Below, one piece after another: positions 2,157 through 57,015 of a stretch of 64,000 bases of DNA (its first letter is position 1; the number at the start of each line of letters is the position of its first letter). Below the pieces are notes generated by a model that saw only the letters and a list, made by a program, of their open reading frames with translations, ran no database searches and was not told where the DNA came from. The DNA is taken from contig CAWIPK010000007.1 of NCBI GenBank assembly GCA_963837925.1, positions 81,124-145,123 on the forward strand, written 5' to 3'. The DNA is from an uncultured Chloroflexia bacterium. Its GTDB lineage: Bacteria > Chloroflexota > Anaerolineae > CG2-30-64-16. The position numbers were made by a program, and so were the translations under genes.

Positions 2157-3410
2157 GTGAGCGCGCGCCTGTTCCTGGTCGTCTTCCTGGTGCTGCTCGC
2201 CACGGGCCTGCCCAGCGATGGCTACCTCGGCGCGGCCAGGACGGAGCTCGCTATCAACCAGGCGGTCGGCGACCAGGGCTTCCGCCTGGGGGCCTGGGAG
2301 GTCCAGGCGCTCGAGCAGAAGGCCCACGACTTCTTCACTCGTCCGGGCGACGAGCTTTCCGTCATCCGGCGGCATGACCTGGTGGTCACCTACTTCCGCA
2401 CCATCGATTGGGCCAACCACCTATCCGACCAGATCCAAGCCGTTCATGCCGATCCAGGGCAGACCGACCCGGACGCGGCCGCCGCCCCACTGCAGGTTGA
2501 ACTGGATGCCGTGCGGGCCGAGCAGGCGGCGCGCCGGCCGGCCGTCGAACGGATCCTGCAGGAACAGGTGGCCACGGTGCTGGACGAGGTGGGACTGGGC
2601 ATCGGGGGAGCGGTCTGGCCACCGGTGGTGTTCCAGTTCACCGCAGGACCCGACCAGTTGATCATCTCGCCCCGCGATCGCATCCGCATCCAGCAGACGA
2701 TCCTTATGGTGCCCGACCAGCCGGTCAGCAACATGGAGCGCGTCGAGGCCGAAGCCGAACAACAGCCCAATGTCAGCGCGCTGGTGGAAGGCATCGGGGG
2801 ACTGGGCGCTTACCCGACCATGGTCATCCCCGTGTCCGATCTGTCCTGGGTAGCCGACACGATCGCGCATGAGTGGACACATACCTACCTTGAATTTCGG
2901 CCCTTGGGCCTGCACTACAGTGACAACGGCGATACGCGCACGCTCAACGAGACTGTCGCCTCGATTGTCGGCAGCGAGATCGGCCGGGCGGTGATCCAGC
3001 GCTACTATCCCGAGCTCGTCCCGCCCGCGCCCCCGCAGCCGGCCCCGCCGGCAAGGCCCGGCCAGGCCGAGGCCGCAGCGCGTCCGGCTTTCGACTACGG
3101 GCAGACCATGCGCGAGACACGCCTGCACGTCGACGACTTGCTGGCCAAGGGCCGGGTGAACGAAGCGGAAACCTACATGGAGCAGCAGCGCAGGCTCCTG
3201 TGGGAGCACGGCTATCAGATCCGTAAACTCAACCAGGCATACTTTGCTTTTCACGGTTCCTACGCGGTCGGACCGGGCGCGACGGACCCCATCGGGGACA
3301 AGCTGCGGACCCTGCGGCAGCGGAGCCCCGACCTGCTGGCCTTCGTGCGCACCGTCGCCCATATTACCTCGGTTCAGGAACTGGACGCGGCGCTGGCGCA
3401 GGGTGGATGA
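2157..3410 (+). CDS. Membrane-anchored putative zinc metallopeptidase (HExxH motif); otherwise hypothetical
   Basis: N-terminal hydrophobic helix LFLVVFLVLLATGL and HEWTH within TIAHEWTHTY. The start is uncertain. The ORF track opens at 2064, but that lies upstream of the predicted -10 at 2069-2074, so I chose the in-frame GTG at 2157. Confidence 0.55.
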   Translation: MSARLFLVVFLVLLATGLPSDGYLGAARTELAINQAVGDQGFRLGAWEVQALEQKAHDFFTRPGDELSVIRRHDLVVTYFRTIDWANHLSDQIQAVHADPGQTDPDAAAAPLQVELDAVRAEQAARRPAVERILQEQVATVLDEVGLGIGGAVWPPVVFQFTAGPDQLIISPRDRIRIQQTILMVPDQPVSNMERVEAEAEQQPNVSALVEGIGGLGAYPTMVIPVSDLSWVADTIAHEWTHTYLEFRPLGLHYSDNGDTRTLNETVASIVGSEIGRAVIQRYYPELVPPAPPQPAPPARPGQAEAAARPAFDYGQTMRETRLHVDDLLAKGRVNEAETYMEQQRRLLWEHGYQIRKLNQAYFAFHGSYAVGPGATDPIGDKLRTLRQRSPDLLAFVRTVAHITSVQELDAALAQGG

Positions 3411-10056: not shown

Positions 10057-10076
10057 ACGAGCAGTATAATCCCCAT

Positions 10077-10105
10077 TTGACACTTTCTCAACCCCGTGCT
10101 ATACA
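10077..10105 (+). promoter_or_regulatory. Sigma70-type promoter for the his leader/operon (TTGACA, 17-nt spacer, TATACA)
   Basis: -35 TTGACA at 10077-10082, a 17-nt spacer, and -10 TATACA at 10100-10105. It sits in the dinB/hisZ divergent intergenic region. Confidence 0.5.
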
Positions 10106-10115
10106 TACTCACGTT

Positions 10116-10175
10116 ATGTTTCGATTATTGCTCGGCAAGCATCACCATCGCAGCGCGGGCAGGCGCACGGGATAA
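10116..10175 (+). CDS. Candidate his leader peptide MFRLLLGKHHHRSAGRRTG (19 codons, three consecutive His codons)
   Basis: ATG at 10116, CAT CAC CAT at 10140-10148, TAA at 10173-10175. It lies between the predicted promoter and the terminator directly upstream of hisZ. There is no SD, and the predicted TSS is only a few nt upstream. Confidence 0.5.
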   Translation: MFRLLLGKHHHRSAGRRTG

Positions 10176-10214
10176 GCGGTTCAACCGTTGGCGTCCCAAT
10201 TGTGCTTACCCGGC

Positions 10215-10247
10215 AGGACTAGTTGGCTCAACTAGTCCTTTTTTGTT
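10215..10247 (+). terminator. Rho-independent terminator / attenuator immediately upstream of hisZ
   Basis: AGGACTAGTTG-gct-CAACTAGTCCT perfect stem followed by TTTTTTGTT. It is strand-specific for plus, and there is no upstream plus-strand gene for it to terminate. Confidence 0.8.
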
Positions 10248-10271
10248 AATCATGAGCTGGAACGGAGCCTT

Positions 10272-11594
10272 ATGCCTGTGACATCGCCTGATGGAGGGTC
10301 GAGCGGATCGCCAAACGCCGCGCCGGCGCCATCGTTCTCGGCTGACCGGCCGTTGCCCGAAGGGGTACGGGACCTGCTCTTCGCCGACGCAGCGGCGGTG
10401 CGCGGCATGGCCGCGGCGCTGCGCGCGCTCTGGAGCGGGTGGAGCTATCGCGAGCTGATCCTGCCCACCTTCGAATACGCGGCCACGCTGGCCACCGACG
10501 TCGGCGCGCAGATCGACGCCGAGCTCTATCGTTTCTTCGACCGGCAGGGGCGCACGCTCGCGCTGCGCCCCGACATGACCCTGCCGACGGCGCGGGTGGT
10601 GGGGACACGTCTCTACGACCAGCCGATGCCCCTACGCCTGTGCTACGTCGGCAGCGTCTTCCGTCACGAACGCCCGCGCGCCGGGCGCCAGCACGAGTTC
10701 ATCCAGGCCGGAATCGAGCTGATCGGCGCGTCCGGCCGGCCCGCCGACGCCGAGGCGATCGCCCTGGCGGTGGCCTCGCTGCGCGCCCTCGGCTTGCCGG
10801 AGTTCCGCGTCACGATCGGCCACGTGGGCTTCTTCCGCGGGCTGTCGGCGGCGCTCGCCCTGCCCGACGGACTGGCTGGCCGGCTCAGGCTGGCGGTCGA
10901 CCGGCGCTCGGAGGCAGAGCTGGCCGACCTGTTGGGGCAGGCAGGGACGGTGGCCGCTACGGCGCGCCGGGCCCTCCTGCAACTGCCACGCCTGACCGGC
11001 TCCGGCGAGGTGCTCAGACAGGCCGAGGAACTGTGCCTGAACGGCGCCATGGCCGGTGCCGTCGCCGACCTGCAAGCGCTGTGCGATCTGCTCGAGGCCC
11101 ATGGCGTGGCGGATGCGGTCAACTACGACCTGGCCGAGGTGCGAGACCTGGACTACTACACCGGGATCACGTTCGAGGGGTTTGCCCCGGGCCTGGGGGT
11201 GAGCCTTATCTCGGGCGGGCGCTACGACAATCTGATCGGCCACTTCGGACCTGCCCAACCGGCGGTCGGTTGGGCCCTCACCCTCGATCAGGTGCTGGTG
11301 GCGCGCGAGCTGCAGGGAGTGGGCCTGCCCGAACCCGTCCCGGACGTCTTGTTGTCGGTCGGCGGACACCCGGACGCCCTGGCCTGGGCCAACCGGGCCC
11401 GCGCACGCGGGCTGCGGGTCGAGGTTGACCTGGCCGGGCTGGAACCGGACGAGCTCTGGCGGTCGGCGCAGACGCGCGGCATCCGGCGGGCGGCCTGGCC
11501 CGCCGGCCCGGCCGGGCTGCGGCTGCGCGAGGCTGGCGGCGAGCGGCAAGTGGCGAACGACGCCTGGGAGGAGTTTGCGACATGGCTCCGCTGA
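10272..11594 (+). CDS. hisZ: ATP phosphoribosyltransferase regulatory subunit (HisRS paralogue)
   Basis: HisS-like core (LPEGVRDLL, LALRPDMTLPTARV, RLCYVGSVFRHERP, EFIQAGIELIG) without an anticodon-binding domain. It overlaps the short-form hisG. Confidence 0.9.
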   Translation: MPVTSPDGGSSGSPNAAPAPSFSADRPLPEGVRDLLFADAAAVRGMAAALRALWSGWSYRELILPTFEYAATLATDVGAQIDAELYRFFDRQGRTLALRPDMTLPTARVVGTRLYDQPMPLRLCYVGSVFRHERPRAGRQHEFIQAGIELIGASGRPADAEAIALAVASLRALGLPEFRVTIGHVGFFRGLSAALALPDGLAGRLRLAVDRRSEAELADLLGQAGTVAATARRALLQLPRLTGSGEVLRQAEELCLNGAMAGAVADLQALCDLLEAHGVADAVNYDLAEVRDLDYYTGITFEGFAPGLGVSLISGGRYDNLIGHFGPAQPAVGWALTLDQVLVARELQGVGLPEPVPDVLLSVGGHPDALAWANRARARGLRVEVDLAGLEPDELWRSAQTRGIRRAAWPAGPAGLRLREAGGERQVANDAWEEFATWLR

Positions 11595-14765: not shown

Positions 14766-15887
14766 TCAGCCCTGGGTCCGCTCCCAGAGGGACGCCAGTT
14801 GGTCTGGATGGTCGAGGACGGCATCGGCGCCCAGCGAGAAGAACTGGGAACGCAGATCGTCTTTGCCGGCCGCGGTCGTCAGGCCGATCGCCAACCAGGG
14901 ACGAGCGTTCGGGGCGACGCGGGCGCGCTGCACCGCATGCATATCGTCCAGGGTATCGCCGACGTAGGCCGCCGGCAAGCGACCCGACGGATCCAGGGCA
15001 TCGGCAGCGAGCTGCAAGAGGTAGGGATGGGGCTTGAGCAAGGAAGGGCCACCGGGCGCCTGGGCGGCCAGGGCGTCGCTCATCGTCGCGATAGGGGATG
15101 CAGCGGGGCCGGCAAAGAAGCGAGCCAACGCGAGGCGGACGAGCGTCGGCTCGACCTCGAAGGCGGCGCGGCCGGTGGCGATGCCGAGGCGGGCGAAGCC
15201 GGCCAGGCTCTCCAGCGTGGCGGTCGCGATCAGCAGCGTCTCGCGTTCGATGAAGCCGGGTCCCGCGTAGAAGCGAGGTGGGTAGCCGTAGGCCCGCTCG
15301 AAGATCGCCGCGCCGGCGTACAGCTCCTCGAACACGCGCTGTACCAGGTCGGTCTTGTCAGCGCTGCCCGTGTGCCAGACCAGGTGGGCGTTGTGTCCGC
15401 CCGTAAACCCGCGCAACGCGGCCAGGCCGCCGCCCGCCTTGCGGATGGCCACGGTCAGCCGGTCGAAGTCCGGCCGGGGAGGGGTCAGTCCGGCCAACGG
15501 CGCCGCGGCGAGGCGCAGCGCGGCCAACAACGCTTCCTGGTCGGGCCAGGCTCCGGCCGGGTAGGGCAGACTGCCGCTGCCTGGCAGCGGGCCGTTGCCT
15601 CGCAGCGGAGCACCGGTCAGCGGCGCCGCCAGAGGCAGGCCGGCCAACAACAGCTCCAGGTAGCCGGCGCACAGGTCCCAGTCGTCGTTGAAGCCGCCCA
15701 TCAGCTTGAACTGGTCGTAGTCGTCGCCTGACAGCGCCGGCGCGTCCAGTCCGAGCAGGCGCAGGTACTGCCGGGCGGCGGCCGGCGCGGCTTCCCGGAA
15801 CGACCGGCCGACGTCGACCAGCGTGCCGTCAACGTCGAAGATCACGAGGGCGGGCCGAGGCAGCTTATTCTGATCGGGTTTGAGCAT
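14766..15887 (-). CDS. HAD-superfamily hydrolase with a large cap insertion (candidate histidinol-phosphatase, see findings)
   Basis: HAD motifs are present: I FDVDGTL, II GIATGR, III LLKPHP, IV YVGDTLDDM. The gene is embedded in the his cluster on the opposite strand. Confidence 0.75.
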   Translation of the reverse strand: MLKPDQNKLPRPALVIFDVDGTLVDVGRSFREAAPAAARQYLRLLGLDAPALSGDDYDQFKLMGGFNDDWDLCAGYLELLLAGLPLAAPLTGAPLRGNGPLPGSGSLPYPAGAWPDQEALLAALRLAAAPLAGLTPPRPDFDRLTVAIRKAGGGLAALRGFTGGHNAHLVWHTGSADKTDLVQRVFEELYAGAAIFERAYGYPPRFYAGPGFIERETLLIATATLESLAGFARLGIATGRAAFEVEPTLVRLALARFFAGPAASPIATMSDALAAQAPGGPSLLKPHPYLLQLAADALDPSGRLPAAYVGDTLDDMHAVQRARVAPNARPWLAIGLTTAAGKDDLRSQFFSLGADAVLDHPDQLASLWERTQG

Positions 15888-15955: not shown

Positions 15956-16543
15956 ATGCGCCAAGCAACTATTGAGCGAACCACGAACGAGACCCAGATC
16001 CACCTGACCCTGGCCGTGGACGGGCGCGGCCTGGCGCGGGTGAACACGGGGCTGGGTTTCCTGGATCACATGCTGACCCTGTTCGCCCACCACGGCCTGT
16101 TCGACCTGACCGTGGACGCCAAAGGCGACCTGCAGGTCGACGCGCACCACGTCGTCGAGGACGTCGCCGTCTGCCTGGGACAGGCGCTGAACCAGGCCCT
16201 GGACGACAAAGCCGGTATCGTGCGCATGGCCGACTGTTCGGTGCCGATGGACGAGGCGCTGGGCTTTGTGGCAGTCGATCTGAGCGGGCGGCCATACTCG
16301 GTGATCGACGTCGCCTGGCACGGACCGGTGCTGGGCGGCATGGAAGTGGATATGGTGCAGCACTTTTTGGAGACACTGGCGGCGAACGGCCGCTTCAACC
16401 TGCACGCCAGGGTGCCCTATGGGCGCAACGACCATCACCAGGCAGAGGCGTTGTTCAAGGCCCTGGCGCGGGCCCTGGATGCGGCCACACGCCTGGACCC
16501 GCGCCGCCAGGGCATCCCATCGACCAAGGGCAAACTGGCATGA
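15956..16543 (+). CDS. hisB: Imidazoleglycerol-phosphate dehydratase (monofunctional)
   Basis: [22 protein letters not shown] and [14 protein letters not shown]. At 195 aa it has no fused phosphatase domain. AGGAGG RBS. Confidence 0.95.
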
Positions 16544-17199
16544 GCCAACCCGCCTGGATCGCGGTGCTGGACTACGGCGTGGGCAACCTGCGTAATGTGT
16601 ACAAGGCCCTGGAAGCTGCCGGCGCACCGGGGCGCGTGGTCACGGAGCCGGATGGCCTGGTGGGTGCGGCGGGTGTCGTGCTACCGGGGGTCGGCGCCTT
16701 CGGCGATGCTGCGGCCAACTTCCGGCGCGCCGGCTTCGAGGCGCCGCTGCGCCGCGCGGTCGAAGCACGGGTCCCCCTGCTGGGCATCTGCGTCGGAATG
16801 CAGCTGCTGTTCGACGAGAGCGAGGAGATGGGCCACCACGCCGGCCTGGGGCTCATCCCCGGGTGCGTGCGGCGCTTTCCGGGCGACATGCAAGCGGCCG
16901 ACGGGCGGCCGCTCAAGGTGCCTGCCATCGGCTGGAACCAGCTGGCCCGGGTCGGGGCGGACGATCCGCTGCTGGCCGGCGTGCCCGACCTGGCCTACGC
17001 TTACTTCGTGCATTCGTACTACTGCGCCCCGCAAACGGCCGCCTGCGTACTGACCCTGACCGGCTACGGGATCGACTACGCGTCGATCGTGCGGCGGGGC
17101 AGGGTCTGGGGCATTCAGTGCCACCCGGAGAAGAGCCAGGACGTCGGGCTGCGCATCCTGCGGAACTTCGCCGGTATCGTGCGAGGGGATGAGGGATGA
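16540..17199 (+). CDS. hisH: Imidazole glycerol phosphate synthase, glutaminase subunit
   Basis: [24 protein letters not shown] and QCHPEKS. ATGA overlap with hisB. Confidence 0.95.
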
Positions 17200-17987
17200 T
17201 CGTCCTTCCGGCGATCGACTTGCGCGCGGGGCAGGTCGTGCGCCTGCGCCGCGGCGATCCGGCCGCCCAGACGGTGTTCGGCGACGACCCGGCCGAGGTC
17301 GCACGCGCCTGGGCCGCCCAGGGTGCCGAGTGGCTGCACGTGGTCAACCTCGACGGCGCGTTGGGGGCGGCAGAGGGCGCGGCGCTCAACCTGCGCCGGC
17401 TGAGGGAGATCCGGACTGCCAGCACGCTGCTGATCCAGTTCGGAGGCGGCATCCGCAGCGACGACGACCTCGCGCGGGCTTTCGATTCCGGCGTGACGCG
17501 CGTCGTCCTCGGCACGGCGGCGGTTCAGCGACCGCAGCTCCTCGAGACGGCCGTGCACCGCTTCGGGGCCGAGCGCATCGTGGCCGGCATCGACGCCCGG
17601 CACGGCCGCGTGGCCGTCGCCGGCTGGCAGGTGACGTCGGCGCTGAGCGCGCTGGAGCTGGCGCAGGGCATGGCGGCGCGGGGAGTGGTGAGGGCGGTCT
17701 ACACCGATATCACACGTGACGGCATGCTTTCGGGCGTGGACGCGGCCGCGACGGCGGCTTTGGCACGCGAGAGCGGGCTCAAGCTGATCGCGAGTGGTGG
17801 TGTCGCCGGTCTCGAGGACGTGCGCGCCCTGGCCGAGCATGAGGGCGACGGCGTCGAGGGCGTCATCATCGGCCAGGCGCTGTACAGTGGAACGATCGAT
17901 CTGGCGGCGGCCATCCGCCTGGGCCGGTTGTCGACGCCCGGCGCGCGGCGGACGCACGACGTGTTCGGAGAAACAGATGCTGGCTAA
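17196..17987 (+). CDS. hisA: ProFAR isomerase
   Basis: [33 protein letters not shown] and SGGV. ATGA overlap with hisH. Confidence 0.93.
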
Positions 17988-18792
17988 ACGGATCATCCCT
18001 TGCCTGGACGTAAAGGACGGGCGAGTGGTCAAAGGGGTCAAGTTCGTCGAGCTGCGCGATGCCGGGGACCCGGTCGCCCAGGCCCAGGTGTACGATCGCG
18101 AGGGCGCGGATGAGCTGGTTTTCCTGGATATCACCGCCAGCTACGAGCGGCGAGACATCGTCATCGAAATGGTGCGGCGCGTGGCCGATTCAGTCTTCAT
18201 CCCGTTCACGGTCGGCGGCGGTATCCGCACGGTCGAGGATATGCGGGCTCTGTTGCTGGCAGGGGCCGACAAGGTCTCGATCAACACGCCGGCCGTGCGC
18301 ACCCCTGAGCTGATCACCGCCGGGGCCACCCGCTTCGGCAGCCAGTGCATCGTCGTCGCCATTGACGGCAGACGGCAGGGAGGTGGTGCCCGCAGCGATC
18401 CCGCCGCCCACGGCGATCGAGATCGCTGGGAAGTGTTCGTCGACGGCGGGCGCGTGGCGGTCGGGCTGGATGTGGTCGAGTGGGCGCGTGAGGTCGAGCG
18501 TCGTGGAGCGGGTGAGATCCTGCTGACGAGCATGGATACCGATGGGACGCGCGCCGGGTATGATATCCCCATGCTGCGCGCCGTCGCGCAGGCCGTGAAC
18601 ATCCCGGTGATCGCATCGGGGGGTGCCGGCGCCGCGCAAGATTTCGAGGCCGCCCTGACGGCCGGCCGCGCGGATGCGGCGCTGGCCGCGTCGCTCTTCC
18701 ATTATCGAGAGCTGACGGTGGGAGACGTGAAACGTTACCTGGCCGAACGCGGCGTGCCGGTGCGCCTGACGGGCAGCAGCGCCGCTGGTTGA
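17977..18792 (+). CDS. hisF: Imidazole glycerol phosphate synthase, cyclase subunit
   Basis: [41 protein letters not shown] and ASGGAG. ATG at 17977 with GGAGAA RBS. The ORF-track start at 17794 lies inside hisA. Confidence 0.95.
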
Positions 18793-32955: not shown

Positions 32956-32983
32956 AAAAAGCGGAGGCCGCCAGAGCCTCCGC
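32956..32983 (-). terminator. Rho-independent terminator downstream of icd
   Basis: On the minus strand, GCGGAGGC-tctggcg-GCCTCCGC followed by TTTTTC, 24 nt after the icd stop. Confidence 0.75.
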
Positions 32984-56980: not shown

Positions 56981-57015
56981 AAAAAGGCTGAAGGGCCCGA
57001 ATTTGCCCTTCAGCC
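56981..57015 (-). terminator. Rho-independent terminator of the Rad52-like gene
   Basis: On the minus strand, GGCTGAAGGGC-aaattcgg-GCCCTTCAGCC followed by TTTTTG, about 40 nt after the stop at 57056. Confidence 0.85.

Follow-up and report, generated by a model that had tools for sequence, protein, structure and literature searches.

A predicted leader-peptide histidine attenuator in front of the hisZGDC operon in Chloroflexota

The enterobacterial his leader carries seven His codons, which lie inside its first hairpin. In the Escherichia coli trp leader, the regulatory codons are inside region 1 and region 2 is covered by a ribosome that ends translation; there, the terminator (about -20 kcal/mol) beats the antiterminator (about -12 kcal/mol) in stability, and the antiterminator wins by forming first. 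Beyond enterobacteria, His leader peptides have been predicted before hisZ in the Bacillus cereus group, Peptostreptococcaceae and Erysipelotrichales (Naville & Gautheret 2010, PMC2965389; Ashniev et al. 2022, PMC9413887), and leaderless polycysteine short open reading frames (ORFs) of mycobacteria are reported as Cys-responsive attenuators (bioRxiv 10.1101/834739). Here we analyzed a stretch of 64,000 nucleotides (nt) of contig CAWIPK010000007.1 from an uncultured Chloroflexia bacterium (hereafter the window), in which a candidate His attenuator had been proposed at positions 10077-10250, directly upstream of hisZ. Our analysis indicates that this region is probably the control region of the his operon and a ribosome-mediated (leader-peptide) His attenuator, a reading to which we give a probability of 0.82-0.85 on the basis of sequence comparison. 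The original prediction had regarded an HHH mini-leader on an essentially leaderless mRNA of a high-GC non-proteobacterium as an unusual variant. The published Firmicutes and mycobacterial cases do not bear this out, and the Chloroflexota leader is therefore less unusual than assumed. It would be a known kind of regulator; full-text literature searches that combined Chloroflexi with histidine, attenuation or leader peptide turned up no account of it in this phylum.

A conserved leader upstream of hisZ

DNA upstream of hisZ was collected by a scan of one genome per species and by look-ups of contigs encoding individual homologs. This gave 18 independent Chloroflexota upstream regions (hisZ 42-87% identical), most of which are closely related and show little covariation. 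The nearest named HisZ homologs (87-73% identical) come from metagenome-assembled genomes (MAGs) of Anaerolineae/Chloroflexi and are annotated as ATP phosphoribosyltransferase regulatory subunit. Results showed the same order of elements at 18/18 loci: a promoter, an ORF with a run of His codons, a hairpin (H1) enclosing the stop codon of this ORF, and an intrinsic terminator abutting H1. The mini-ORF, its His codons and the terminator, on whose conservation the original prediction depended, are thus present throughout, which supports the His attenuator reading. Coordinates in the window are given in Table 1.

The leaders fall into two types. Type A comprises 14 leaders (window, L081, L210, L084, L085, L086, L088, L001-L005, L211 and L212; L082, L083 and L192 are near-identical copies of L081) with the common core GGCAGGCGCACGGCAUAGCCGRCGUC...GCGCUUGCC. 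Type B comprises five (L006, L008, L011, L009 and the truncated L007), which have another hairpin sequence (GGGGUGAG...) in the same layout. A covariance model, R1, was built from the 14 type A leaders and scanned against 412 kb of sequence including Firmicutes hisZ loci and unrelated contigs. It recovered all five type B leaders at full length (26-39 bits, E-values 1.8e-8 to 1.2e-4), none of which had been used in building it. The window holds a single full-length hit; one further match there (E-value 0.012) arises because the terminator stem is palindromic and is also read on the minus strand. Nothing further was found below an E-value of 0.01 across the 412 kb, and the Firmicutes hisZ loci scanned gave no match. 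The Firmicutes hisZ loci fetched by the scan of one genome per species carry no His-run leader either. In Rfam 15, no family matched the leader of the window, even at E-values up to 10; the His_leader family (RF00514) stayed below its gathering score throughout the window and 20 loci, and in the leader it gave nothing at E-values up to 10. A metagenome search with the pattern GCAGGCGC-N45-75-AGTCCTTTT proved too loose, with 120 matches that included one real leader (L192).

Several properties of the ORF suggest that it is read codon by codon. Leader ORFs of the relatives have 16-36 codons and 2-5 consecutive His codons (18/18). The peptides count 16-21 residues (36 in L009); their N-termini are unrelated among relatives, and in type A the conserved RNA extends over the codons of the C-terminus, G-R-R-T/S/P-A/G/V. 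The His run ends 18, 21, 24 or 27 nt before the stop codon, so that all length differences are multiples of three. The stop codon itself keeps a constant structural position, about 17 nt into H1 in type A and exactly 17 nt in 11/14. Variation within the His runs is confined to the third codon position. Counted over the window and 17 loci, leader His codons are CAU 48 times and CAC 12 times (80% CAU), as against CAC 35 times and CAT 6 times (85% CAC) in the his genes of the window; CAU in the leader is therefore a rare, wobble-read codon. Judged by its initiation context, frame-preserving indels, third-position-only changes and CAU bias, the leader ORF appears translatable and under coding constraint, and it is presumably translated.

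Initiation seems to follow two modes. In 11 leaders the start codon is preceded by a Shine-Dalgarno (SD) sequence, within a 5' untranslated region (UTR) of 24-29 nt. The leaders of the window, L081, L002, L211, L006 and L011 have no SD sequence and start 6-10 nt past the -10 box (6 nt in L002), and L009 also lacks one, starting 8 nt past the -10 box. One of the SD-less leaders, L211, belongs to a distant type A relative. In the window, the ATG lies 10 nt past the -10 box, with no purine-rich stretch before it; a 5' UTR of 3-5 nt is therefore likely, and the ORF is plausibly leaderless or near-leaderless. The ATG of the divergent neighbour dinB is 6 nt past its own -10 box, which makes leaderless initiation plausible and apparently normal in this organism.

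Upstream of the leader ORF, every relative with upstream DNA available shows TTGACA followed 17-18 nt further on by TGnTAnAnT; at the place of the extended -10 element of the window, the relatives read TGcTATACT, TGcTACACT or TGaTAGACT. A consensus promoter scan of the window did not report the plus-strand his promoter, because position 6 of its -10 hexamer is A and not T; the sole hit was the dinB promoter on the minus strand.

In the window, 4 nt lie between the last His codon and H1, which is present in both the minimum free energy (MFE) and the centroid fold, with -31.6 kcal/mol when folded alone. The whole leader folds at -56 kcal/mol (z = -3.25), and 1/200 shuffled sequences was as stable. 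The terminator adjoins H1 with a 0-nt gap. Across the alignment of the 14 leaders, H1 and the terminator are 92.8% paired, versus 31-53% with slid partners, and the terminator stem shows covariation at alignment columns 86/100 (GC in 8 leaders, AU in 6). The GC content is 0.52 across the leader versus 0.70-0.77 in its flanks.

Most of the layout given in the original prediction held. The promoter TTGACA-17-TATACA was confirmed, with an added TG that makes the -10 element an extended one, as were the 19-codon ORF with its CAT-CAC-CAT and the terminator with its 11-bp perfect stem and T6. One distance had to be corrected: the hisZ ATG, correctly placed at 10272, is 27 nt and not 25 nt past the U-tract. 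The statement that no plus-strand gene lies upstream also stood, since the neighbour is the minus-strand dinB; there is therefore no such gene that needs the terminator.

Terminator-like perfect-stem hairpins are found only three times in the 64 kb of the window, the one of the hisZ leader included, suggesting that canonical intrinsic terminators are rare in this genome. The other two perfect-stem hairpins with a T-run are on the minus strand, at 56986-57015 and 32961-32983. A lineage-specific insertion of 12 nt was noted at 10176-10187, shared with L081 (1405-1416) and L192. It adds the hairpin 10175-10180 / 10184-10189 inside H1, lifts the stability of H1 to about -32 kcal/mol and shifts the CGUC segment away from the stop codon.

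Table 1. Features of the hisZ leader and its operon in the window (positions in nt from the start of the 64,000-nt stretch)
Feature	Position	Strand	Description
-35 hexamer	10077-10082	+	TTGACA, read from sequence; predicted his promoter
Extended -10	10097-10105	+	TGcTATACA; TATACA 10100-10105, TG 10097-10098, spacer 17 nt
Leader ORF	10116-10175	+	19 codons, MFRLLLGKHHHRSAGRRTG; ATG 10116, TAA 10173-10175, no SD
Putative regulatory His codons	10140-10148	+	CAU-CAC-CAU
Conserved RNA family, extent	10140-10249	+	covariance model R1, 75.4 bits, E-value 1e-19
Hairpin H1	10153-10214	+	outer stem 10153-10167 / 10201-10214
H1 inner stems	10169-10173 / 10193-10197; 10175-10180 / 10184-10189		
Conserved segment	10189-10196	+	UGGCGUCC, consensus CGRCGUCY; pairs GGCG of H1 5' arm (10162-10165) or GGAC..GUUG of left terminator arm
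Intrinsic terminator	10215-10244	+	stem 10215-10225 / 10229-10239, 11 perfect pairs, AGGACUAGUUG / CAACUAGUCCU, loop GCU, U6
GUUAA after U-tract	10245-10249	+	kept in 13/14 type A leaders
hisZ	10272-11594	+	first gene of hisZ-hisG-hisD-hisC; GGAG at 10264-10267 before ATG
hisB-hisH-hisA-hisF	15956-18792		follow after minus-strand HAD hydrolase

Proposed switch and candidate antiterminators

In the mechanism that we propose, a sigma-70-type promoter would yield a leader RNA of about 135 nt, encoding a 19-residue peptide with three His codons and carrying the terminator at its end. By default, this RNA would fold into H1 and the adjoining terminator, and transcription would stop before hisZ. A ribosome on the mini-ORF would report the supply of charged tRNA-His. 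At high supply, the ribosome would move on through the 5' arm of H1 until it met the stop codon, where it would either cover this arm or, upon release, let H1 re-form, and the terminator would form. At low supply, it would stall on the slowly decoded CAU/CAC codons with its front edge at the base of H1. The basal pairs of H1 would then be lost, the left terminator arm would be taken by the CGRCGUCY segment or by the H1 3' arm once this is free, and with the terminator hairpin coming too late, RNA polymerase would read into hisZ. This specific wiring (stall, destabilized H1, sequestered terminator arm, read-through) is tentative and has, in our view, well below an even chance of being right; both the direction of the response and the identity of the antiterminator pairing are inferred.

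The spacing of the elements is compatible with such a switch. Across leaders, 1-7 nt separate the His run from the base of H1 (mode 7, window 4), and the terminator follows H1 without a gap in 14/18 leaders and after 1-4 nt in the others. The nascent RNA up to the terminator loop was refolded for the 18 loci with 3-12 nt masked past the last His codon. With 3 nt masked, 92% of the H1 pairs were kept and 0/18 loci had an upstream partner for the left terminator arm; the corresponding values were 85% and 1/18 with 6 nt, 53% and 4/18 with 9 nt, and 11% and 17/18 with 12 nt. This places the point at which the structure tips at the front of a ribosome that has stalled on the last His codon. In the alternative folds, a local GGCG:CGUC hairpin is stacked on a stop-codon stem, and the left terminator arm pairs with pyrimidine-rich segments upstream of it.

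Among the candidate antiterminators, the CGRCGUCY segment alone is conserved. Its pairing with GGCG of H1 is 97.3% conserved. Its pairing with the left terminator arm is possible in all 14 close leaders (93-95% paired, 1-3 double changes) and is the only upstream pairing of this arm that is kept in register. When folded alone, the candidate antiterminator reaches -6.5 to -14.5 kcal/mol, versus -10 to -19 kcal/mol for the terminator. The original prediction had offered a split pairing of CAAC...GUCC with the left terminator arm. Half of it survives, as GUCC lies within CGRCGUCY; CAAC falls in the 12-nt insertion and reads UCAC/UAAC in the nearest relatives. The accompanying remark that no antiterminator was convincing stands, because the pairing energy of CGRCGUCY is at chance level.

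Two other candidates were rejected. The His-codon region pairs with the left terminator arm in ribosome-free truncated folds, but in 16/18 loci it does so more weakly than shuffled upstream sequence. For the 5' part of the ORF, the ribosome-free values were 2.8 kcal/mol versus 4.8 kcal/mol with shuffled sequence, a pairing weaker than chance that fits termination by default. A pairing between the left terminator arm and the H1 3' arm varies in register and has a core of only 4 bp. It would also form with a ribosome at the stop codon and so cannot discriminate between the two states.

Weighing of the attenuator against other explanations

A number of observations weigh against the leader-peptide attenuator as proposed. 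Among the candidates tested, no statistically supported antiterminator was found: the duplex of CGRCGUCY with the terminator arm has -6.0 kcal/mol versus -5.3 kcal/mol with shuffled inner segments, which is not above chance. In full-length MFE folds the terminator was present in every masked ribosome state, so that any antiterminator must act kinetically. The His codons are outside H1, which differs from the enterobacterial his and trp leaders, and a ribosome on the first His codon leaves H1 intact. In the window, the 12-nt insertion puts the conserved segment out of reach of a ribosome at the stop codon; masking of the antiterminator by a terminating ribosome therefore fails there. The leaders of Peptostreptococcaceae have a segment complementary to the His codons (CUAUGAUGG), and the Chloroflexota leaders have none. 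The -10 hexamer of the window ends in A, without the usually invariant T at position 6. Lastly, a search of sequencing runs found no RNA run with the sequence; two runs of DNA or unknown type hold 5% of its words.

The lack of a supported antiterminator leaves room for a ribosome-sensed switch that has no classical alternative hairpin, in which H1 would be flush both with the mRNA entrance of the stalled ribosome and with the terminator. In one geometric version, a stalled ribosome and a folded H1 would together leave too little space for the base of the terminator stem to fold inside the RNA exit channel of the polymerase. In another, the basal five pairs of H1 would unzip into a linker and allow a pseudoknot, made of the middle stem of H1 and a pairing of the H1 loop with the left terminator arm; this pseudoknot is ruled out as long as H1 is fully paired and the gap is 0 nt. 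A ribosome holds 7 nt of mRNA 3' of its A site, and the spacings of the leaders are invariant (His run to H1 at most 7 nt, H1 to terminator 0 nt in most leaders, stop codon 17 nt into H1 in most type A leaders), which the textbook model does not need. Nested antiterminators are none above chance, the complement of GGCG is present twice (in CGUC and in the 3' arm of H1), and a rough estimate puts the pseudoknot at -7 to -16 kcal/mol, within range of the nested folds with the terminator arm free (-10 to -21 kcal/mol). Yet this geometry is argued by inference, the energy put on the pseudoknot is a crude figure that mostly falls short of the nested MFE, and the spacing may reflect just the need to destabilize H1. 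We consider this explanation unlikely. A broader variant, an attenuator without conventional antiterminator in which geometry decides (by steric effects or a pseudoknot) and whose ORF is leaderless or near-leaderless in some lineages including that of the window, is doubtful. Three features of the family are unusual: some lineages initiate without an SD sequence, the spacings are fixed, and an antiterminator is not evident. They may or may not reflect a different mechanism.

Explanations in which the peptide plays no part fare worse. H1 itself could be the sensor, either a riboswitch or a site bound by a His-responsive protein (e.g., HisZ/HisRS-like), with the ORF secondary or incidental. The interior of H1, that is the type A core, is conserved far beyond the needs of a plain hairpin, the sequence of the terminator stem is conserved too, and a convincing antiterminator was not found. 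A sensor of this kind would nevertheless leave unexplained the in-frame start, the preserved frame, the third-position-only His changes, the CAU bias and a stop codon in the hairpin loop; type B leaders keep ORF and architecture with a different H1 sequence, and no Rfam family matches. It seems quite improbable. T-boxes control his genes in Firmicutes and Actinobacteria (PMC9413887), and a T-box-like element could read uncharged tRNA-His with a CAU/CAC triplet as specifier; the bulge CGUUGGC, specific to the window, even contains UGGN. This bulge, however, sits in the lineage-specific insertion and is absent from 12/14 close leaders, and nothing like Stem I is present in the leader, which measures about 110 nt between His run and U-tract. 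The Rfam T-box model (RF00230) gave no hit at E-values up to 10 in the window and L002, and 20 hisZ loci yielded nothing that reached the gathering score; in the Firmicutes subset scanned with Rfam, no T-box was found 5' of hisZ. The Rfam model and the insertion effectively refute the T-box reading, which we hold to be extremely improbable. That a chance ORF lies beside an ordinary terminator or insulator between divergent genes is hardly credible: a three-codon His run in a single sequence is weak evidence alone, but the whole arrangement recurs in 18/18 relatives, bears coding signatures and is picked out by a specific covariance model, and the terminator is downstream of the only promoter-like site for hisZ. 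The leader-peptide attenuator therefore remains our preferred reading of the region.

Gene context and comparison with known attenuators

In Pfam searches, the products of the operon matched tRNA-synt_His (HisZ), followed by HisG, histidinol dehydrogenase and an aminotransferase. HisZ has 440 aa, of which residues 31-341 only are covered by tRNA-synt_His; a C-terminal extension of about 100 residues (342-440; 11295-11594) has no Pfam hit and is present across the relatives (424-476 aa). The gene for the HAD-family hydrolase that separates hisZGDC from hisBHAF is on the minus strand at 14766-15887 and may encode the missing histidinol-phosphate phosphatase. Upstream, the ORF of dinB runs on the minus strand from its ATG at 10056-10054 to 8854. 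Its promoter, TTGAGA-17-TATACT (10091..10063, minus strand), is back to back with the his promoter within 40 nt, as is also the case in L081, and dinB itself looks leaderless from the position of its start codon.

Some relatives showed particular features around hisZ. Stretches of 170-310 nt that contain long GC-rich palindromes are found between the terminator and hisZ in L088/L089 (1310-1500), L001 (965-1237) and L005 (2680-3000); in these three relatives they look like inserted repeat elements. In L084, hisG is called as two ORFs of 136 and 94 aa (2763-3396), probably owing to a frameshift or an assembly error. The contig of L008 is labelled Acidobacteriota and carries a type B leader (2854-2990) and a Chloroflexota-like hisZ (48% identity to that of the window), which points to mis-binning or horizontal transfer.

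The leader adds a conserved cis-regulatory RNA family, with alignment and covariance model, to the Chloroflexota, a mostly uncultured phylum with almost no characterized gene regulation. It suggests that his operons have recruited leader-peptide attenuation independently once more, and it would unite in one family two initiation modes, SD-led or SD-less and close to the -10 box, according to lineage. If the invariant spacings are part of the mechanism, it could be a useful system for the communication between a stalled ribosome and a terminator without a classical antiterminator. For annotation, the mini-ORF and the leader should be marked in Anaerolineae MAGs, where the leader predicts a histidine response of the his operon.

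Enterobacterial hisL and the Chloroflexota leader both have a promoter, tandem His codons in a short ORF and a terminator before the first his gene; alternative folds and termination by default would also be common to the two. The two show no similarity of sequence or in the covariance model RF00514. The Chloroflexota leaders have 2-5 His codons instead of seven, placed 1-7 nt 5' of the first hairpin and not inside it, and their stop codon is inside the hairpin; the first gene is hisZ instead of hisG, and some leaders lack an SD sequence. In addition, H1 abuts the terminator without spacer, and no clear antiterminator is seen. Like the E. coli trp leader, the Chloroflexota leaders would work by alternative pairing, and the ratio of the energies of terminator and candidate antiterminator is similar; they differ in that the stalled ribosome would just reach the base of H1. 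The Firmicutes hisZ leaders are alike in having 3-5 His codons directly 5' of an "attenuator hairpin" that is followed by the terminator, and they too are computational predictions; their sequences are unrelated to those of Chloroflexota. The mycobacterial polycysteine ORFs differ in amino acid, phylum and sequence, and an SD-less start is found in 6/17 complete Chloroflexota leaders. The likeness lies in tandem codons for the end product, a 5' end that may be leaderless in some Chloroflexota leaders too, and a place in high-GC bacteria outside the Proteobacteria.

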